From NCBI GenBank assembly GCA_022868165.1, contig JALHYA010000017.1:11634-75633 (forward strand): a DNA stretch of 64,000 nucleotides, read 5' to 3'. How positions within the stretch are numbered: position 1 is the first letter of the stretch; each line of letters starts with the position of its first letter. This document shows positions 21,558 to 36,729 of this stretch, piece by piece. The stretch comes from Patescibacteria group bacterium (lineage in GTDB: Bacteria; Patescibacteriota; Microgenomatia; UBA8517). A model generated the notes under the pieces. That model was not told the origin of the DNA. It saw nothing but the letters and a program-made list of their open reading frames with translations, and did not search any database. Made by a program: the position numbers and the translations under genes.

Positions 21558-23468
21558 TTAATCCTTCCGTTTTACGCCAACAATCGCCTCGAAGTCATCT
21601 CTTTCCAATGTTTCTTTAACCAAAAGTTTTTTAACAATACTGTCTAGGGTCTTTCTTCTTTTCTTGACGATTTGAACAGCTTCCTTATAACAGGAGTCGA
21701 TAATTTTTTTAACTTCGTTGTCGATTTTTTCCTGCATTGCCGGAGAAACCTGCGCCGGTTCGTACATCTCCGGTGCTCCAAATTCGCTATATTCGGTTTG
21801 CGGGCCCAAATTAATCGGTCCAAGGTTGCTCATTCCGAAATCCACAACCATCGCTCTGGCAATCCTTGTTGCTTGGGCAATATCATTCGATGCGCCCGAT
21901 GTCATTTCGTTAAAAACCAACTCTTCGGCTGCTCTTCCCCCAAGCATCGCAGTAATTTCCTGAGTAAGATGGGTTTTGGTTTCATGCGACCTGTCTGCCG
22001 CGGGAGGAATTAGCGTGTGGCCCAAACTCATTCCCCTCGCAACAATGGAAATTCTGTGTACCGGGTCCATTTTTGGCAGAGTGTGGGTTACAATTGCATG
22101 GCCGGCTTCATGATAGGCCGTTATTTCTTTATCTTCTTTGCTTTGAAGTTTATTTTTGGCCGGACCAAGCTTAACTTTGGTGGCAGCCTCCTCGATATCT
22201 TCCATCTCCACCAATTCTTTTCCTTCGCGCGCTGCCAAAATGGCGGCTTCGTTAAGCATATTTTCCAAATCTGCTCCTGAAAATCCAACCGTTCTATCTG
22301 CTACTCTTTGCCATTTGACCCCGCGGGAAAATTTCTTCCCCCTGGCATGAATCTTCAAAATAGCCAGTCTTCCCTCCTTGTCCGGCATATCCAAAACTAC
22401 ACGCCTGTCAAATCTTCCCGGCCTTAATAGTGCGGGATCCAATAAGTCTCCCCTATTTGTTGCGGCAATAACCATTACGTTGTCGTTGGGAGTAAAGCCA
22501 TCCATTTCAACCAGAATTTGGTTCAGGGTTTGCTCACGCTCATCGTGGCCTCCAAAAAAACCTCTTCCTCTCGGGCGGCCGATAGCGTCTATCTCGTCAA
22601 TGAAAATAATCGAGGGAGCGGTGGCTTTGGCTTGAGCAAATAAGTCGCGGACGCGGGATGCCCCAACCCCAACGAGCATTTCCATAAATTCGCTTCCCGC
22701 CATGCTAAAAAACGGCACTCCGGCTTCTCCGGCAACGGCTCTTGCCAAGAGTGTCTTTCCGACCCCTGCCGGACCAAAAAGAAGTACACCTTTCGGAGTT
22801 CTGGCCCCAAGCTTACTGTACTTCGTGGGATTTTTTAGAAAGTCCACAACTTCCTCGAGCTCTTTTTTGGCATCATCAACTCCGGCAACGTCATTAAAAC
22901 TTACCTGCTGTCTGCCCTTGGCGAAAAGTTTTGCCCGGCTGCGGCCGAAAGAAAATATATCTTGTGCCCCTTTTGTTTGGGCCCGAATGATAAAAAAGAA
23001 GAAAACGCCCATTAGGGCGAGGGGTAAAACAATTCCCATAATATCTCCAAAAGTTTTGGATAAAGACTGGTCAACAACCTTATAGCTTATGCTTGAAGGG
23101 TTAACACCGGCCTTAGACAAAAGATCCGAAAAGCTGTCCTTATCCTCCTTTATTGAATACTTTACTGTCCCATCTTTATAGTCGAGGATTAAACGGTTAT
23201 CTTCTATTGTTACCTTGGAGAGTTTTCCTGCCTTGGCGTCCGAGACAACTTGGGATATATCTACATTAGTGTTGGTGTTTTTTAACTCAAATGCCGAAAG
23301 CAAAAGCGGTACCAGAAAAATTATCAAAAAGAGGCCAAAAAGAACCGACCAGAGATTAATCTTAATCTTAAACTGCAAGCCCTTTTTCCCTTTTTTGTCG
23401 CCAAAAATCTTTATTTTTCGCATACTTGCCTTAAGGCAGGCTATTTTACCACATTCAGCATGTGGCAA
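21558..23468 (-). CDS. ftsH: ATP-dependent zinc metalloprotease FtsH
   Basis: AAA Walker A GPAGVGKT, SRH region, HEAGHA zinc motif, N-terminal TM. Start may be the downstream MRKIKIF. Confidence 0.9.
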   Translation of the reverse strand: MPHAECGKIACLKASMRKIKIFGDKKGKKGLQFKIKINLWSVLFGLFLIIFLVPLLLSAFELKNTNTNVDISQVVSDAKAGKLSKVTIEDNRLILDYKDGTVKYSIKEDKDSFSDLLSKAGVNPSSISYKVVDQSLSKTFGDIMGIVLPLALMGVFFFFIIRAQTKGAQDIFSFGRSRAKLFAKGRQQVSFNDVAGVDDAKKELEEVVDFLKNPTKYSKLGARTPKGVLLFGPAGVGKTLLARAVAGEAGVPFFSMAGSEFMEMLVGVGASRVRDLFAQAKATAPSIIFIDEIDAIGRPRGRGFFGGHDEREQTLNQILVEMDGFTPNDNVMVIAATNRGDLLDPALLRPGRFDRRVVLDMPDKEGRLAILKIHARGKKFSRGVKWQRVADRTVGFSGADLENMLNEAAILAAREGKELVEMEDIEEAATKVKLGPAKNKLQSKEDKEITAYHEAGHAIVTHTLPKMDPVHRISIVARGMSLGHTLIPPAADRSHETKTHLTQEITAMLGGRAAEELVFNEMTSGASNDIAQATRIARAMVVDFGMSNLGPINLGPQTEYSEFGAPEMYEPAQVSPAMQEKIDNEVKKIIDSCYKEAVQIVKKRRKTLDSIVKKLLVKETLERDDFEAIVGVKRKD

Positions 23469-23828: not shown

Positions 23829-24829
23829 ATCAAACCCATTGACTTTTTGACCTCATCCAAAGTCCCTCGCGCAACAGCCCTGGCCCTTTTTGCCCCGTCT
23901 TCGAGCACTCTTTCTACATAAGAAGGGTCTTTTTCAAGAACTGCCCGCCTTTTTTGAATAGGCTCAATTTCCTTATAAATTGCCTGGGCAAGCTTTTCTT
24001 TGAGCTCGGAATATCTAATTCCCTCGCCAAGATACATCTTTTCGTATTTTTCTCTCTCCGCCCCTCCTTCAAAAAGCTCAACAAGTTCCAATAGCGTCGC
24101 CACGCCACCTTTTTCGGGCACTTTCTCCCCACGTCCGGAATCTGTCGGAGTTTTGGCCAGCTTCTCTTTGATGGCTTCCAGGCTGTCGGTTAGGTAAATC
24201 GAGCTTCCCTCAACTGTTTTGGCCATCTTCCCCTCTCCTGTTAATGACGGCACATACTCGCCCTCGGTTACGAATCTTGTCGGTTCCGGAAAGGATAGTC
24301 CATACTTCTCATTCATTTTTCTGGCAATTTCTCTGGTTATCTCAAGATGCGGTTCTTGGTCTATTCCGGTCGGCACAAGCGGAGCTTTATAAGCCAAAAT
24401 GTCGGCCGCCATAAGGATTGGATAGTTGAGAAGGCCAACATTTACGTTCTGGGGGTACTGTTTAACCTTCTCTTTGTAAGTGGGAAGGTGCTGCATGCGG
24501 GCTATTGACACGGCTGTTGAGAAAAGATAGGCCAACTCAACATGCTCGGGAACGTAAGATTGGATAAAAATCGTCGATTTTTCGGGGTCAAGGCCCGCGG
24601 AAAGATAGTCCATTACAACCTCCCTGGTGTTATTTTTGAGCTCCCTGGGGCTATAAGGCGTGGTAAGGGTGTGTAAATCGGCAACCATATAGAAAGTTTC
24701 ATAATCCGGATTATCTTGTAGGACCAGCATGCCCTTGACCGCCCCCAGATAATTACCCAGGTGTAGCCTTCCTGTAGCCCTAATGCCCGATAAAACTCGC
24801 TTTTTGGCCATATATACGGATTCTACCAT
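23825..24829 (-). CDS. trpS: tryptophan--tRNA ligase
   Basis: HLGNYLGA (HIGH-region variant) and KMAKT (KMSKS variant). About 330 aa class I aaRS. Confidence 0.85.
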   Translation of the reverse strand: MVESVYMAKKRVLSGIRATGRLHLGNYLGAVKGMLVLQDNPDYETFYMVADLHTLTTPYSPRELKNNTREVVMDYLSAGLDPEKSTIFIQSYVPEHVELAYLFSTAVSIARMQHLPTYKEKVKQYPQNVNVGLLNYPILMAADILAYKAPLVPTGIDQEPHLEITREIARKMNEKYGLSFPEPTRFVTEGEYVPSLTGEGKMAKTVEGSSIYLTDSLEAIKEKLAKTPTDSGRGEKVPEKGGVATLLELVELFEGGAEREKYEKMYLGEGIRYSELKEKLAQAIYKEIEPIQKRRAVLEKDPSYVERVLEDGAKRARAVARGTLDEVKKSMGLI

Positions 24830-24918
24830 TATTGAGGCTAAAGAGGAAATTTACTAGTGGCTACGAGAGGATTCGCCGTGCAAAACTTAACCTTGAGAAG
24901 CACTATCGAAACCTCGAG

Positions 24919-25156
24919 TGGCTACGAGAGGATTCGAACCTCTGATCTTGCGCTTATAAGCGTAGCTTGCAAACCCTTCGGGTTTATAAGCGAAGCTTGT
25001 GTCGCGAAATATTGGTGCCAGCGACAGGACTCGAACCTGTGACGGCTCGCTTATGAAACGAGTGCTCTACCGCTGAGCTACGCTGGCATATTTCGCGTCA
25101 TGAAATCCCGCTCTTAGGCGATAGCCGCACCTCTTGGTGCACTGAGCTACGTAGCC
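24919..25156 (-). other. interrupted/split tRNA gene (host of nested tRNA-Met)
   Basis: 5' part GGCTACG-TA-GCTC-AGT at 25156 downward. 3' part AGAGG-TTCGAAT-CCTCT-CGTAGCC-A ending at 24919. Acceptor strands are perfectly complementary (7/7). The about 190 nt between them contains a complete tRNA-Met. Confidence 0.45.
25013..25087 (-). tRNA. tRNA-Met (anticodon CAT), elongator-like, CCA encoded
   Basis: GCCAGCG-TA-GCTC-AGCGGTA-GAGC; anticodon stem CTCGT/GCGAG with loop TTCATAA; T-arm ACAGG-TTCGAGT-CCTGT; CCA. Flanked by a 12-bp inverted repeat GTCGCGAAATAT/ATATTTCGCGTC. Confidence 0.85.
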
Positions 25157-25262
25157 GCGTCAATGCTTAGCTCGCCTAATTCAATTCTGTCCCTTTCGGG
25201 ACACGAATCTTTACCGCTCGCTAGCCTTTCCTTTCAAAATTGCTAGGCAATTTTGGTGTTTA

Positions 25263-25283
25263 CAAAATCGCAATGCGATTTTG
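25263..25283. repeat. perfect 10-bp inverted repeat CAAAATCGCA-a-TGCGATTTTG
   Basis: Read directly in the tRNA-locus intergenic region. Confidence 0.5.
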
Positions 25284-25358
25284 AGAGGAGGAGCCGACTT
25301 GAAATAGCTAAGTCCCGACTAAATCGGGACGAAGCGCAAAAGTCGAGCTCCGACGATG

Positions 25359-25428
25359 TTGCGGGGCTAGGAGTTGAACCTAGCCTGGAAGATTATGAGC
25401 CTTCCGTGCAGCCGTACACTACCCCGCA
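25359..25428 (-). tRNA. tRNA-Met (anticodon CAT), initiator-like (TGCGGGG...CCCCGCA acceptor, loop CTCATAA), no CCA encoded
   Basis: Acceptor TGCGGGG/CCCCGCA, D-stem GTGT/GCAC, anticodon stem GAAGG/TCTTC with loop CTCATAA, T-arm CTAGG-TTCAACT-CCTAG. Confidence 0.7.
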
Positions 25429-25454
25429 CGTAGATGAACGGGCTCTATTATACC

Positions 25455-25817
25455 TCAAAGGAACAGTTTCAGCCACTTTCTCCAGGTTGGGTCAGGCAGT
25501 TTTTCTTCCTCTTCCGGTAGCCTCGGAGCCAACTCTTCTAGGATTTTTGTTTCCGGCAAAACTATCACTATTTCGCCCTTTTTAGCCAGCCCCAACTTAT
25601 CCCGTAGCTGTTTTTCAATATATTCCTCGCTCTGGGCTTCTTTAAGTCTAGCTTCCAAGTCGCTATTTTCTCCCTGAAGCTTAGTAATATTTTCCTTTAT
25701 CTTATCTGTCCCCCTTTTTGCTTCAAGTCCTTTGAATACATTTCTAACCAAGGAAATACTCAAAAGCACTGCAAGTCCTAAAAGTAATAAATTCGTATAT
25801 TTTGCTAACTTTTGCAT
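25455..25817 (-). CDS. septum formation initiator FtsB/DivIC-like (single TM + coiled coil)
   Basis: N-terminal TM, LQGENSDLEARLKEAQSEEYIEKQ coiled coil, 120 aa. Confidence 0.55.
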   Translation of the reverse strand: MQKLAKYTNLLLLGLAVLLSISLVRNVFKGLEAKRGTDKIKENITKLQGENSDLEARLKEAQSEEYIEKQLRDKLGLAKKGEIVIVLPETKILEELAPRLPEEEEKLPDPTWRKWLKLFL

Positions 25818-25948
25818 TGTAGCTTATAAGCACAGCTTGTGAGACTTTACTTTAAAAAGTAAACGTCTCATAATATGCGTTGACTCAGCAGAAATATGTG
25901 CTAGAATATAGGTCCTGCGAAAATTTCTGCTCCTAAGTTTATCTGATT

Positions 25949-26815
25949 ATGGCACAAGATACTCTAAAAAACCTGCTACCCAAGTTTGTCGAAAGCTTGA
26001 AAACCAAAGGTCGCTCCCCGTCGACCGTTCTCGCCTATCGGGCAGACCTTGAACAGCTTGTACAGTTTCTATTAAGCAAGAATAAGCCCCTTTCGGACCA
26101 GGTTAGACCCAGCGATTTGGAGGGCTTCCGTGACACCCTTTTGGCCGAAAAATACACTCCCAAAAGCGTATCCCGCAAGCTAAACGCCGTCAAAACTTTC
26201 TTTAGATGGCTGATTGCCGAGAATATTCTTACATCCGATCCTTCGGCTTCCGTAGCCCATCCCAAGATAGAAAGTTCTCTTCCCAAGTTTCTTTCCCAGC
26301 TGGAATATAGGGCTCTTCGTGATGTCGTCCGCGGGGATGTCAGAATAGCCGCTATTGTGGAGCTTATCTTGCAAACCGGAATGAGAATTTCCGAGGTTGC
26401 AAACCTTAAAATCGAAAATGTCAAAGAGAATGAAGCAAAAATTGAGGCTTACGCTACCCAGCCCGAGCGCACCGTTCCTCTAAACAAGCCGGCCAAAGAC
26501 GCTCTAAATGCTTATTTGGCAATCAGACCCGACAAAAACGGCTCGCCGTATGTGTTTGTAAGCAAAACCGGTCATCCGTTGGCAGTAAGAAATATAAGGG
26601 CCGCAATAGACAGATATATGCAAAAGGCAGAAGTTCCCGCCTATTCGGTTAATGATTTGAGAACTACTTTTATAGTCGAAAATCTTAAGGCCGGAGTTGA
26701 TTTGGTTCTTCTTTCCCAAGTAACGGGCCACAAAAGACTTTCGACAACCGAGCGTTATTTGGAGTTAGCCCAAGTCACCGAGCCCGGCAAGCGCCAAATC
26801 CTTCAGGAGCTTTAA
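25949..26815 (+). CDS. tyrosine site-specific recombinase, XerC/XerD-like
   Basis: N-terminal SAM-like core-binding domain (TVLAYRADLEQLVQFL). Catalytic R (RISEVANL), H-x-x-R and nucleophile Y in GHKRLSTTERYLEL. Confidence 0.8.
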   Translation: MAQDTLKNLLPKFVESLKTKGRSPSTVLAYRADLEQLVQFLLSKNKPLSDQVRPSDLEGFRDTLLAEKYTPKSVSRKLNAVKTFFRWLIAENILTSDPSASVAHPKIESSLPKFLSQLEYRALRDVVRGDVRIAAIVELILQTGMRISEVANLKIENVKENEAKIEAYATQPERTVPLNKPAKDALNAYLAIRPDKNGSPYVFVSKTGHPLAVRNIRAAIDRYMQKAEVPAYSVNDLRTTFIVENLKAGVDLVLLSQVTGHKRLSTTERYLELAQVTEPGKRQILQEL

Positions 26816-26820
26816 AAGTT

Positions 26821-27019
26821 TGGTGGAGCCGCTTGGGACCGAACCAAGTACCTGTTGTTTATGATAGAGCTTCACTCTGACATGTCAGCAAAACCTCTGT
26901 GGAACGGGATGGGATCGAACCATCGACCTCATGTTTATAAGACATGTGCTCTAACCACTGAGCTACCGTTCCATTATTGCTGTCATAAGACAACCGCTCT
27001 ACCAATGAGCTACGGCTCC
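26821..27019 (-). other. interrupted/split tRNA gene (host of nested tRNA-Ile UAU); reconstructed anticodon CAU or UAU
   Basis: 5' half GGAGCCG-TA-GCTC-ATTGGTA-GAGC-G-GTTGT-CTTATGA (27019 down to about 26983). 3' half TCATAA-ACAAC-AGGTA-CTTGG-TTCGGTC-CCAAG-CGGCTCC-A-CCA (about 26858 to 26821). Acceptor 7/7 and anticodon stem 5/5 complementary. Canonical D-arm and T-arm. Interrupted in the anticodon loop by about 137 nt. Confidence 0.55.
26900..26972 (-). tRNA. tRNA-Ile (anticodon TAT, reads AUA)
   Basis: GGAACGG-TA-GCTC-AGTGGTTA-GAGC-A-CATGT-CTTATAA-ACATG-AGGTC-GATGG-TTCGATC-CCATC-CCGTTCC-A. All stems Watson-Crick. Confidence 0.8.
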
Positions 27020-27056
27020 ATCGAGGCTATATTATATCAGAAAGAGGCTATTGAAG

Positions 27057-27908
27057 TTACTTTTTCTTCTTTTTATGATTCACGGCTCCTTCAATCTCCT
27101 CCCAATCTCTTACTTTTCGAATCTTCAGATTCTTTTCCCACATGGCTTTTAAGGCGGACATATCCACACCCATATTTTTGGCAAAACCCAAAAGCGCGAC
27201 TGTATCCTTGGGAAAACATTTGCCACCAAAACCCCGAATTGTTGTAACACTAAGGTGGCTCAACCCAATTCTGGGGTCAGCGGCAACCAGTTCCTTTACC
27301 TCGTCATATTTAATACCAAGGGCGGTACACAAGTCGTACATTTCATTCGCAAAAATGACCTTAGAAGCCAAAAGGGCATTGCTCATATATTTAACCATCT
27401 CTGCCGTGGTTGTATCCGTAATAAAAATTTTTGCTTTTGGTCCCAATAGGTCCCTATAAAGAGCAACCAATCTTTCCGAAACAGACTGGGAAAGGGCCCC
27501 TATTATTGTTCTGTCTGGGTGTAAAAAATCCCAAGGGCCATTGGCTTCAGTTAAAAATTCGGGGTTCATCGCAAAAAGCGTTTCCGGATACTTCTTTTTG
27601 AACGATACCGTTGTTCCGGGAACCACGGTGGATTTTATTGTGAGAATTTTATCTGTTTTCACTATTTTGGGTGCGATTCTATCAACAACCTCTTTGATCA
27701 CCGATAAATCGATCCCGCTGTTGTCGGAAAACATTGGAGTAGGAACACAAACAAATATAAATTCCGACTCGGATATTACTTTTTGAAGCGAAGCAGGACC
27801 TTTTTTATACTTATCCCACCAGAAAATTTCGTTTTCTTTGTTTCTAGCAAAACCTTCTCCGACGGCTTTCCCTACTATCCCCCAGCCGATAATTCCGATT
27901 TTAGCCAT
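27057..27908 (-). CDS. nucleotide-sugar (UDP-glucose/GDP-mannose) dehydrogenase family protein, short form lacking the C-terminal domain
   Basis: N-terminal IGIIGWGIVGKAV Rossmann motif and catalytic-Cys motif GFGGKCFPKD. Only 283 aa. Confidence 0.7.
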   Translation of the reverse strand: MAKIGIIGWGIVGKAVGEGFARNKENEIFWWDKYKKGPASLQKVISESEFIFVCVPTPMFSDNSGIDLSVIKEVVDRIAPKIVKTDKILTIKSTVVPGTTVSFKKKYPETLFAMNPEFLTEANGPWDFLHPDRTIIGALSQSVSERLVALYRDLLGPKAKIFITDTTTAEMVKYMSNALLASKVIFANEMYDLCTALGIKYDEVKELVAADPRIGLSHLSVTTIRGFGGKCFPKDTVALLGFAKNMGVDMSALKAMWEKNLKIRKVRDWEEIEGAVNHKKKKK

Positions 27909-35605: not shown

Positions 35606-36247
35606 TTATCTAAACAAAATAATGGGCCATTCCCAAAGAACATGAAGGAAGATTGAAGAGAAAACATTCTTTGTCCGGGCAAAAACAAAAGCCGAACCCA
35701 ATCCAAAAAGAGCAGTGATAAGTAGATTTACCATTGTTGCCGAAGCGCCCAACTGCAGAACAAAAATGTAAATCGGAACGTGTATTAGAACCCAAACAAG
35801 AGTTGTTATTACATTGGCGAGCCATTCATTTTTCAGAGCAAGCCACAACCTGTTAAACATATATCCCCTAAACGCAATCTCCTCACTCACGGCTGTTGCA
35901 AACGATATTCCCAAAGCCATAGGAAGCGTCTTGTCTCCAATATTTGCCGCAAAACTTAGGCCGTTGTGCTTAATAAAATTGATAATCAGCGCCTCCATCA
36001 CAAAAAACGAACCCAGGGCCAGAGAAAAATAAACGGAGGGGAAGAGGTTTTTGACTGTTATCCCCAAAGAATCCAAACCCAAGCCCTCTTTTTTGATAAT
36101 TACAAAAACCGGTATCAACCAAATAATGGGTTTTACAACCAACTCCTCTACTTCATCGGGTAGTTGTATTAAAAACCTGTAAAGTCCCCAGACTATCAAA
36201 AGATATGTTGCGTAAACCGTCGCTGTTTTTAAATAATTTTCTTTCAT
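35606..36247 (-). CDS. CPBP family intramembrane glutamic endopeptidase (CAAX protease/Abi-like)
   Basis: EEIAFRGYMFNRL motif 1. Multiple TM. Conserved His in the downstream TM. Confidence 0.75.
   Translation of the reverse strand: MKENYLKTATVYATYLLIVWGLYRFLIQLPDEVEELVVKPIIWLIPVFVIIKKEGLGLDSLGITVKNLFPSVYFSLALGSFFVMEALIINFIKHNGLSFAANIGDKTLPMALGISFATAVSEEIAFRGYMFNRLWLALKNEWLANVITTLVWVLIHVPIYIFVLQLGASATMVNLLITALFGLGSAFVFARTKNVFSSIFLHVLWEWPIILFR
35627..35654. repeat. 27-bp direct repeat copy 2 (overlaps the CPBP stop region)
   Basis: Matches 35338-35364. Confidence 0.6.
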
Positions 36248-36729
36248 TGCCCTTTCATTTTACATTCTTTATATGCTAGGCCGATGGCTTTGATAACCAT
36301 ATCTACTCTTTCTTTCGCCTCGGTGACACTCAGAGCATTCTTTTCGTTGGGAAACCAATGGAAAACCAAATTTCTGCAATTTTTCCAAGTGTCCCAAAGG
36401 GTATCCGCAAGCATGTTTGTCCCGGTAAAAGCGACCAGTTTGTCGTAGACGCTCTCGCTCCTGAAACTTTTTTCCAGAGAAGGATTTAAAGCTTTCCCGA
36501 TCCTAAAATGCTTTCCGTAGTAATCCTGGGGGGTGATAAACTCCAAATCCAAAAACAATTTTTTCAAAAATCCTTCGTAGGCTTTGGCTGCAGGAAAAAC
36601 CACAAAAGCATAGTCATGGAAATCCTCCTTGCCGTAATATGTTTCGGACAACAAAACCGCCTCATTTAGAAGCTTCTGAAGATCTTCTCCCAGGTAATTC
36701 CACCAGACCTCTTTCGACAGCTCACCCAT
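36244..36729 (-). CDS. hypothetical protein (161 aa) with R-x4-H (HEPN-like) motif
   Basis: NCRNLVFHW carries an Rx4H motif. Overlaps the CPBP start by 4 bp. Confidence 0.45.
   Translation of the reverse strand: MGELSKEVWWNYLGEDLQKLLNEAVLLSETYYGKEDFHDYAFVVFPAAKAYEGFLKKLFLDLEFITPQDYYGKHFRIGKALNPSLEKSFRSESVYDKLVAFTGTNMLADTLWDTWKNCRNLVFHWFPNEKNALSVTEAKERVDMVIKAIGLAYKECKMKGQ

Follow-up and report, generated by a model that had tools for sequence, protein, structure and literature searches.

We analysed a 64,000-nt stretch of the genome of a Patescibacteria group bacterium (NCBI GenBank assembly GCA_022868165.1, contig JALHYA010000017.1, positions 11,634 to 75,633 of the forward strand; hereafter the window), in which a tRNA gene is interrupted in its anticodon loop by a second, complete tRNA gene. 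This nested locus is very probably the result of a recent DNA insertion, in which a small, non-autonomous, promoterless and self-compensating cassette carrying tRNA-Ile(UAU) entered the resident tRNA-Ile(UAU) gene between positions A35 and T36 and replaced it. The best explanation of the cassette, judged from its sequence, is a complete tRNA-Ile(UAU) gene lying between the two halves of a structured, putative recombination site. The original prediction for this locus had offered three readings, namely, an unusual tRNA intron, a split-tRNA processing system, and a recombinase-mediated insertion into a tRNA gene, which we weigh below.

Empty and filled alleles of the tRNA-Ile(UAU) gene

The evidence for an insertion comes from two close relatives, the loci L081 and L082, whose recombinase proteins, encoded next to the tRNA gene, are 97% and 96% identical to that of the window (94% DNA identity for L081). 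All three loci have in common the promoter, ctttctgatataatatagcctcgat, and the downstream flank, and between these flanks L081 and L082 carry an uninterrupted tRNA gene, GGAGCCGTAGCTCATTGGTAGAGCGGTTGTCTTATAAACAACAGGTACTTGGTTCGATCCCAAGCGGCTCCACCA, with the loop CTTATAA. At this locus a clean block of 124 bp and one T-loop base, A58 having changed to G, set the window apart from them. Since these two relatives carry the same gene uninterrupted, the window most probably contains a recent DNA insertion between A35 and T36. The outer halves match the uninterrupted orthologue at 74 of 75 positions, which excludes chance as their source, and the 5' part is identical to it; the outer gene is the orthologue of a normal tRNA-Ile(UAU). 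The junction sequence of the empty allele, which is also that of the spliced outer gene, is GGTTGTCTTATAAACAACAGG. A blastn-short search with the outer halves of the window against the first 80 of the loci described below gave no match, the orthologue being found only among the closer metagenome relatives. A second series of loci is preserved in three states: L108 and L115 are empty, L098 contains one cassette, and L099 contains a further cassette within the tRNA of the first one, together with a 47-nt deletion. As the recombinase genes of L098 and L099 are identical (861/861), the additional insertion in L099 must be very recent.

The nested unit lies on the minus strand, as do all tRNA genes of the region, with the outer tRNA running from 27019 to 26821 around the insert and the inner tRNA (Table 1). 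Much of what had been predicted for this unit was recovered, including the inner tRNA-Ile(UAU), found by both Rfam and ARAGORN, the acceptor stem (5' strand GGAGCCG), the D-arm (GCTC/GAGC) and the anticodon stem GTTGT/ACAAC of the outer tRNA, the complementary loop halves, the 12-bp palindrome CTGACATGTCAG (26888-26877, minus strand) and the AGAG/CTCT hairpin. The outer T-arm, which had been called canonical, is so in its stem (CTTGG/CCAAG), but its loop reads TTCGGTC, with G at the normally invariant A58, where the orthologues have TTCGATC. Three other details have to be corrected. The insertion, put at about 137 nt, is 124 bp long by comparison with the empty allele (131 nt between both anticodon-stem strands), with a boundary that is ambiguous by the 2 nt AT; it consists of 73 nt of tRNA and 51 nt of non-tRNA sequence, and contains no open reading frame (ORF). 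The loop halves TTATGA and TCATAA do not extend the anticodon stem to a 12-bp helix with a C.A mismatch, but pair only with C32 bulged, giving 5+6 = 11 bp and a one-base bulge. Finally, the outer tRNA had been assigned the anticodon CAU from a joined loop CTCATAA; joining the halves gives either CAU or UAU by choice of the junction, and since the loop of the empty-site orthologues is CTTATAA, the outer gene is a tRNA-Ile(UAU). The 11-bp extended anticodon helix and a 6-bp helix, CAGCAA/TTGCTG, bring the two junctions of the insert together. ARAGORN calls the joined outer halves a tRNA after explicit splicing, and its intron mode run on the region did not call the outer gene.

Recurrence, presumed expression and fate of the nested tRNA genes

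Using the neighbouring recombinase as the query, we retrieved 160 loci from public genomes and metagenomes (protein identity 60-97%), of which the named ones are mostly labelled Woesebacteria, Microgenomates or Patescibacteria. A search of these relatives for tRNA genes interrupted by tRNAs, as the original prediction had suggested, identified relic halves around an intact innermost tRNA-Ile(UAU) in 36 of the 115 distinct loci by a half-tRNA profile and a promoter-distance criterion, and in 41 when cases recognized by eye are included. Nesting reaches three layers in some loci, and all nested loci have a canonical innermost tRNA. The members of one cassette family, which are about 90% identical with their flanks included, are found in six different outer tRNAs; as the recombinases of the genomes concerned are widely divergent, this argues for horizontal spread rather than a single inherited insertion.

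The cargo is always of the same isoacceptor as the target, tRNA-Ile(UAU) being inserted into tRNA-Ile(UAU), and tRNA-Met(CAU) into elongator tRNA-Met(CAU). The latter gene is interrupted at TCA^TAA (^ marks the point of insertion or crossover throughout) by tRNA-Met(CAU) cassettes in the window and in the loci L016/132, L028/151, L049, L124, L149 and L150, and the junction TCA^TGAC... is common to the tRNA-Met nestings of these six other entries. Moreover, Ile and Met cassettes have the right-end module CAGGTTCGnAGAATCTGTCA^TAA in common. In the window the tRNA-Met cassette (25100-25000) directly adjoins an outer 5' half (25156-25101) that ends in the loop start TTCA. Two nestings within about 2 kb are indeed non-random, as had been proposed, both coming from one cassette family that targets tRNA-Ile(UAU) and elongator tRNA-Met(CAU). 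A third tRNA(CAU), of the TGCGGGG...CCCCGCA type, is probably the initiator; it has the same loop hexamer, and none of its 77 copies contains a cassette insertion. The sequence TGACATGTCA has seven copies in 1.9 Mb, six of them at tRNA(UAU/CAU) loci.

The nested unit is preceded by an extended -10 promoter, TGATATAAT, which is identical in the empty-site loci L081 and L082. In almost all loci a TGnTATAAT element is located 10-25 nt upstream of either the plain tRNA-Ile gene or the outermost 5' half, and no locus has one between an outer 5' half and the inner tRNA. Because a promoter is present only upstream of the outermost 5' half, and because the cassette leaders of 9-16 nt are too short for one, we infer that TGATATAAT is the sole promoter of the whole nested unit, which would be expressed as one transcript. 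The resident promoter would thus give rise to a single RNA containing the outer 5' half, the cassette and the outer 3' half, from which RNase P and 3' processing would free the inner tRNA, which presumably is the functional copy and would take over the decoding of AUA. The split outer tRNA would be dead and decaying, its halves being relics, and the TTA^TAA loop of the newly arrived tRNA would be the next target, leading to Russian-doll nesting. Insertion into an essential single-copy gene would be survivable because the cassette carries the replacement, and the same-isoacceptor rule for cargo and target makes sense only if insertion inactivates the target.

To survey the fate of the outer genes, we joined all TTA^TAA and TCA^TAA pairs that could be formed around an innermost tRNA, and submitted the products to ARAGORN. 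A callable outer tRNA joined at A35^T36 was obtained in only 10 Ile loci and 4 Met loci; in the other relics a half is missing, stems are lost, mutated or truncated, or extra insertions are present in the D- or T-loop.

Relic outer tRNAs often contain such additional hairpins. Hairpins of 21-28 nt are inserted in the D-loop just 5' of TAAGAGC in relic outer tRNAs of the window (25101-25156), L049, L051, L028/L151 and L149, and insertions of 30-40 nt are found in the T-loop in L040, L049, L050, L123, L124 and L147. No such D- or T-loop hairpin insertion was seen in any innermost tRNA.

The tRNA-Met nesting of the window (24856-25156, minus strand) is more scrambled than the tRNA-Ile one. The D-loop hairpin in its outer 5' half (25156-25101) is 23 nt long, and the cassette is followed by two CAAGCTnnGCTTATAA repeat units and then by the 3' half (24953-24918), whose acceptor strand fits the 5' half but whose anticodon-stem strand, GCGCA, is not complementary to GGATT. 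At this locus the terminal 19 nt of the tRNA are present twice (24856-24874 and 24917-24935). In L081 and L082, 96 bp with a different, plain tRNA-Met take the place of the 410-bp tRNA-Met stretch of the window, and one additional 57-bp unit is located between divIC and the recombinase gene. The CAAGCTnnGCTTATAA(G) units, with the inverse TTATAAGCnnAGCTTG, form a second short repeat family, which is found on the minus strand of the window at 24954-24969, 24984-24999 and 25824-25839, with variants at 23466 and 35361 (5 window matches vs 0.57 expected), as well as in L044, L072, L034/L038, L059, L121, L123 and L124. Elsewhere this family is found at tRNA junctions of the form CTTATAA^GC..AGCTTG and within -10 boxes; perhaps it represents a further small insertion element with TTATAA at its centre.

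The joined-end hairpin as a putative recombination site

When the ends of a cassette are joined, right to left, they fold into a hairpin whose architecture is constant in 15 cassettes. From base to tip, it consists of an arm of 6-10 bp, a 1x1 mismatch (x.x', A·A in 7/15), a 4-bp box, a pyrimidine-pyrimidine mismatch (y.y', T·T in 12/15 and T·C in 3/15, never paired), and a variable stem-loop of 3-7 bp. The box is usually CATG/CA^TG, with the crossover at the middle of its 3' strand, and has the covarying variants CGCG/CG^CG, TGCG/CG^CA, TATA/TA^TA and CATA/TA^TG, although the box counts are partly circular, since our parse demanded a fully paired box. The arms are paired at 90 of 90 positions, compared with 68.8±2.9 when the partners were shuffled, and none of 5000 shuffles reached 90. 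Unconstrained folding with DNA parameters returned the same structure in all eight joined sites (8/8), with z-scores of -4.2 to -8.0; the joined ends of the window cassette fold with -11.1 kcal/mol (z = -4.26, 0/200 shuffles as good). The cassette ends are complementary to each other over 9-13 nt, and the left-end consensus, TGACA(R)AAAA(W)T, pairs with the 5' strand of the arm (arm5) when the ends are joined. In L150, the last two bases of the cassette have changed from CA to TA, and this change is compensated in the internal box strand (CATG to CATA). The changed positions pair only in the joined form, and the helix formed in the integrated state becomes weaker; selection thus appears to act on the joined or synapsed form, which argues for a DNA recombination site.

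The exchanged strand reads T-C-A^T-G-A in the cassette and T33-N34-A35^T36-A37-A38 in the target, and each of the hexamers at the junctions, TTATGA and TCATAA, is a chimera of the two about its centre; the L002 type has no shared dinucleotide. The hexamers place the exchange within ±1 nt of the box centre, which fits a single-strand exchange or a 2-nt stagger better than a 6-8-bp overlap. Simple tyrosine recombination with a 6-bp overlap and transposition with duplication of TA or AT both agree poorly with the junction sequences, and we rejected them. The cassette would most likely move through a form in which its ends are joined or synapsed and folded, as in the attC sites of integrons, with one strand being exchanged; the predicted circle junction is GCTCTATCA followed directly by TGACAGCAATAAT.

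Table 1. Features of the nested tRNA-Ile(UAU) locus and of its neighbourhood in the window
Feature	Position	Strand	Remarks
Extended -10 promoter TGATATAAT	27031..27039	-	belongs to the resident (outer) tRNA gene; putative function
Outer tRNA-Ile(UAU), positions 1-35	26986..27019	-	GGAGCCG TA GCTC ATTGGTA GAGC G GTTGT CTTA
Inserted cassette, 124 bp	26862..26985	-	TGACAGCAATAAT + tRNA-Ile(UAU) + CAGAGGTTTTGCTGACATGTCAGAGTGAAGCTCTATCA; absent as one clean block from L081/L082
Cassette left end	26977..26985	-	TG (3' half of crossover box), A (mismatch position x'), arm3 CAGCAA
Inner canonical tRNA-Ile(UAU), no encoded CCA	26900..26972	-	Rfam RF00005, 76.5 bits; ARAGORN
arm5 TTGCTG, complementary to arm3 CAGCAA	26886..26891	-	
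A-CATG-T: mismatch position x, 5' strand of 4-bp box, mismatch position y	26880..26885	-	position conserved, box variants covary in other cassettes
Variable stem-loop AGAG TGAAG CTCT with flanking bases	26865..26879	-	tip of the joined-end hairpin
Cassette right end T-CA	26862..26864	-	mismatch position y' and first half of crossover box CA^TG
Outer tRNA-Ile(UAU), positions 36-76	26821..26861	-	TAA ACAAC AGGTA CTTGG TTCGGTC CCAAG CGGCTCC A CCA; G58 at 26839
Second cassette of the same family, elongator tRNA-Met locus	25000..25100	-	TGACGCGAAATAT + tRNA-Met(CAU)-CCA (25087-25013) + ATATTTCGCGACA
Xer-family tyrosine recombinase gene	25949..26815	+	Pfam Phage_integrase and SAM-like domain; conserved neighbour, candidate catalyst

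Mobile DNA that depends on single strands and hairpins includes CTX phage and Xer-exploiting elements (IMEX), which use a folded site, IS200/IS605 elements with their hairpin-only derivatives, and Helitrons. The cassettes resemble these elements in their precise insertion without target duplication, their very short target (Helitrons insert between A and T), the hairpin near the 3' end, their non-autonomous nature, and a logic that rests on a folded strand. In particular, the target T-N-A^T-A-A, the ambiguity of 0-2 nt and a hairpin 3 nt from the right end are as expected of the IS200/IS605 or Helitron type. However, the ends of the cassettes are complementary to each other over the 9-13 nt noted above, in which they differ from IS200/IS605 and Helitrons, and no HUH or Y1 enzyme was found among the scanned ORFs of the window. 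As regards CTX and IMEX, the target of the cassettes is a tRNA anticodon loop and not dif. The cassettes do not look like miniature inverted-repeat transposable elements: inverted ends are present, but there is no duplication beyond the ambiguous 2 nt, and copies are found only at tRNA(UAU/CAU) loci.

The right end of the window cassette also forms a sigma-70-like arrangement, CTGACA-16 nt-TATCAT (26888-26861, minus strand; 10/12 positions), which points into the outer 3' half, and similar TTGACA-17 nt-CATAAG arrangements are found in other cassettes. This match may be due to chance or may be an outward-facing promoter.

The neighbouring recombinase and alternative explanations

The recombinase encoded beside the nested tRNA-Ile locus scores 160 bits with the NCBIfam model of XerC and 155 bits with that of XerD, both below the curated cut-offs, and 56.6 bits with the integron-integrase model TIGR02249, far from its cut-off of 265. 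Its relatives are present in all 160 fetched loci; tRNA-Ile(UAU) is located 4-1,600 nt downstream of it in 126 loci, and one or two tRNA(CAU) genes 1.3-3 kb upstream. This conserved synteny indicates a conserved chromosomal gene and not the integrase of an element. Being related to integron integrases and flanking both hot spots, the protein is an attractive candidate for the catalyst; however, it adjoins tRNA-Ile(UAU) with or without nesting, and this adjacency is equally conserved in loci without relics, which counts against its role. Of the recombinase-mediated insertion offered by the original prediction, the insertion at the DNA level stands with the empty and filled alleles, whereas the agency of a recombinase, and of this neighbour in particular, does not follow from them, and we regard the part of the neighbour in cassette mobility as possible but not likely.

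The best surviving alternative is a variant of our explanation that differs in catalyst and beneficiary: the same cassettes would be run by the host, whose neighbouring Xer-family recombinase would capture and exchange them through the folded hairpin in an integron-like manner, so that the locus would serve as a tRNA-swapping platform and not be the prey of a selfish element. We regard this as possible but clearly not the likelier case. It agrees with an attC-like hairpin of conserved structure, variable sequence and fixed mismatches, with promoterless cassettes downstream of a resident promoter, with the fact that tRNA-Ile (immediately downstream) and tRNA-Met (0.5-3 kb upstream) flank the Xer/IntI-related gene in the fetched loci that have these tRNAs, and with the inversion of the tRNA-plus-promoter unit in about 15 loci. 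On the other hand, the roughly two thirds of loci that have no relics preserve this adjacency equally well, and the recombinase resembles an ordinary XerC/D, falling short of the integron-integrase model. Moreover, the crossover is located centrally in the 6-position box region instead of at an arm boundary, the cassettes are nested and not tandem, and the TTATAA-centred site found upstream of the gene lacks conservation.

The likeness to integrons is nevertheless the closest that we found. As far as can be read from the sequence, both systems have promoterless cargo placed behind a resident promoter and a site that is a folded, imperfect hairpin of variable sequence with fixed unpaired positions and a variable stem-loop at its tip; in both, the crossover falls within one strand of a short paired box, and an Xer-related tyrosine recombinase gene is located beside the insertion point. 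However, the cargo here is a tRNA, the target is the cognate anticodon loop and not attI, there is neither an IntI beside the insertion site nor a tandem array at attI, and the core sites RYYYAAC/GTTRRRY with G^TT of integrons contrast with a CATG, CGCG, TGCG, TATA or CATA box crossed over at A^T. By analogy, attC would thus be the closest known counterpart of the cassette site, with the neighbouring recombinase only a candidate for the catalysis. We tentatively raise an integron-like "tRNA cassette" system in Woesebacteria, in which an Xer-family recombinase, its gene invariably placed between those of tRNA-Met and tRNA-Ile(UAU), would insert promoterless cassettes with an attC-like hairpin into the cognate anticodon loop, although the odds are rather against it. 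If such a system exists, the cell or the cassette would swap the essential tRNAs that read AUA and AUG, a possible benefit being the escape from anticodon-loop nucleases or phage interference, and the nested relics would be a stratigraphic record of successive replacements.

Several further observations concern the recombinase. The sequence GCTTATAAGCACAGCTTG upstream of its gene (25826-25850) was considered as a dif-like site and rejected, since its TTATAA-centred palindrome is not conserved in other loci; TTATGACAAAAAT may resemble a XerD arm. The tRNA-Ile(UAU) gene with its promoter, sometimes with nested relics, is inverted relative to the recombinase gene in L013, L020, L022, L025, L027, L028, L055, L068, L089, L094, L129, L133, L134, L138, L141, L151, L154, L158 and L159, and the upstream tRNA(CAU) genes vary in orientation among loci. 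The spacer between the recombinase and tRNA-Ile genes is variable (L012, L015, L016/L132 and 18 other loci) and contains inserted genes, which encode a protein of 180-190 residues with a weak match to 23S-rRNA-intervening-sequence proteins, a protein of 245-270 residues without a Pfam match, which is present in 18 loci, and a short coiled-coil protein; there was no transposase among the spacer ORFs checked. In the window, the neighbours are a TrpRS/TyrRS-type synthetase, DivIC, the tyrosine recombinase, a UDP-glucose dehydrogenase-like gene and a VirD4-like ATPase, with FtsH, ribonucleotide reductase, penicillin-binding proteins, RecF, Fpg and DNA ligase further out. A small ORF at 36244-36729 (minus strand) has weak matches to RNase LS/RnlA-type HEPN toxin domains (E = 2.5e-5, below the Pfam cut-off), which may be relevant if RNA-cleaving toxins drive tRNA turnover.

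The second alternative is a genuine tRNA intron or split tRNA, in which a single gene would give rise to two tRNAs, the insert being cut out of the RNA and the outer halves then ligated. Group I introns are known in anticodon loops of Patescibacteria tRNA genes, where they are abundant and some are located at position 35/36 (PMC13011429). Like the cassettes, they are found in this phylum and kind of gene, are polymorphic among relatives, and are missed by standard tRNA finders; mobile introns too have empty and filled alleles. In addition, the outer halves of the window are intact except for A58G, and the 11-bp and 6-bp helices draw the junctions together. However, there is no catalytic core: the group I model RF00028 matched neither in 24500-27500 (E ≤ 1) nor in 26780-27060 (E ≤ 10), and group II and the other Rfam intron and ribozyme families had none at E ≤ 10 in 26780-27060, whereas the positive control, a group I intron in the third tRNA(CAU) of L004 (8504-8697), scored 74.9 bits with RF00028. 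The 5' exon ends in A35 and not in a U paired with G in P1, as a group I intron requires, and an insert of 124 nt, 73 of them tRNA and only 51 not, compares with about 200 nt or more for P1-P9. The locus also resembles the intron-containing, split and permuted tRNA genes of archaea in that the loop is interrupted and the halves are held by an extended helix; however, it is bacterial, and a bulge-helix-bulge is lacking, because the junctions A35^T and A^T36 face each other squarely within an unbroken 6-bp helix, TTATGA/TCATAA. Furthermore, the insert contains a whole tRNA of the same isoacceptor, which would be needed only if the target were inactivated; the interrupted gene decays, most related loci having broken or no outer halves around an inner tRNA that is intact without exception; and the conserved structure belongs to the joined cassette ends, not to the integrated RNA. 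Both the intron and the split-tRNA reading of the original prediction are therefore improbable.

The third tRNA(CAU) is also split by about 190 nt in L005, L022, L039, L061, L062, L064, L072 and L073, the identity as an intron being established in L004 alone.

Still less probable is a remnant of a phage or island that was integrated into the tRNA gene by a tyrosine integrase, leaving attL and attR, and was later reduced by deletion. Phages, integrative and conjugative elements and islands integrate into tRNA genes by such integrases, in many cases at the symmetric anticodon arm (Reiter 1989 and Williams 2002, as cited in PMC9897764), and this commonly generates tRNA fragments (PMC9897764). Anticodon loops of tRNA genes are classical attachment sites, the element restores tRNA function, a tyrosine recombinase gene adjoins the locus, lone 3' halves are found downstream of a full tRNA in L040, L021 and L126, and 19 nt of the tRNA 3' end are duplicated at the tRNA-Met locus of the window. 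However, these elements are of kb size, with their own integrase and a duplicated 3' segment forming direct repeats, whereas the cassettes are 110-125 bp long, have no ORF and contain a complete tRNA. Instead of being duplicated in part, the resident gene is divided into two halves that do not overlap, the tRNA-Ile junctions having no direct repeat beyond 2 nt; since no tRNA segment is directly repeated there and the insert has no ORF, the cassette is not a classical integrase-borne element. Moreover, the 124-bp insert is absent as an exact block from close relatives, the chimeric hexamers TTATGA/TCATAA are not predicted by an exchange with a 6-8-bp overlap, and the recombinase is a conserved chromosomal Xer-like gene in all loci. 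An assembly or binning artefact (chimeric contig), to which metagenome-derived sequence with repeated tRNA-like segments may be prone, has a negligible chance, as the same architecture recurs with different sequences in dozens of independent assemblies and projects, including complete-chromosome contigs, and the junctions are base-precise with flanks collinear with those of relatives.

A number of points weigh against the insertion of a mobile, self-compensating cassette, even though we favour it. No catalysing enzyme for the cassette was found: a Pfam scan of the ORFs at about 10.9-40.8 kb of the window detected no transposase, HUH, Y1, serine recombinase or DDE enzyme, and housekeeping genes only. 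No excised or circular form or donor replicon was found, no intact, unintegrated joined hairpin is present in the 1.9 Mb of collected sequence, and in viral contigs the conserved right-end module had no match, while a looser nested-tRNA pattern had 40, which are due to chance, as none overlaps a tRNA. The physical intermediate is speculative, since a double-stranded circle of 124 bp would be a poor recombination substrate. Co-transcription, processing and loss of outer function are steps that we infer from the sequence, and the outer gene of the window is almost perfect, its lone A58 change being weak evidence of decay. The flanking inverted repeats would form an RNA helix too, and one U.G intermediate between T:A and C:G states in L037 hints at a constraint at the RNA level; G.T and A.C mismatches in these repeats (5 vs 3 in 387 aligned positions) are uninformative on RNA- versus DNA-level selection. 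Finally, our locus counts are derived from species representatives and metagenome contigs that were partly de-duplicated.

In full-text searches of one literature collection we found no account of one tRNA gene lying inside another or of cassettes made up of a tRNA only; related matters there are the group I introns that interrupt tRNA genes in Patescibacteria (PMC13011429) and reviews on disrupted tRNA genes in archaea and algae. Within the literature searched, the phenomenon thus appears to be undescribed. On our reading, an essential single-copy gene is invaded without the death of the host, since the element would supply a working copy of the gene that it destroys and thereby re-create its own target. 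Some enzyme would have to read a structured site of about 40 nt and the 6-nt target T-N-A^T-A-A in the anticodon loop, which is directly testable; if this enzyme were found, the system might become a compact tool for site-specific insertion. For annotation, such cassettes would account for orphan tRNA halves and odd tRNA counts in candidate-phyla-radiation genomes. As for the biology of this lineage, its tRNAs for AUA and AUG seem to be subject to an unusual turnover, and the nested layers would be a datable record of their replacement.

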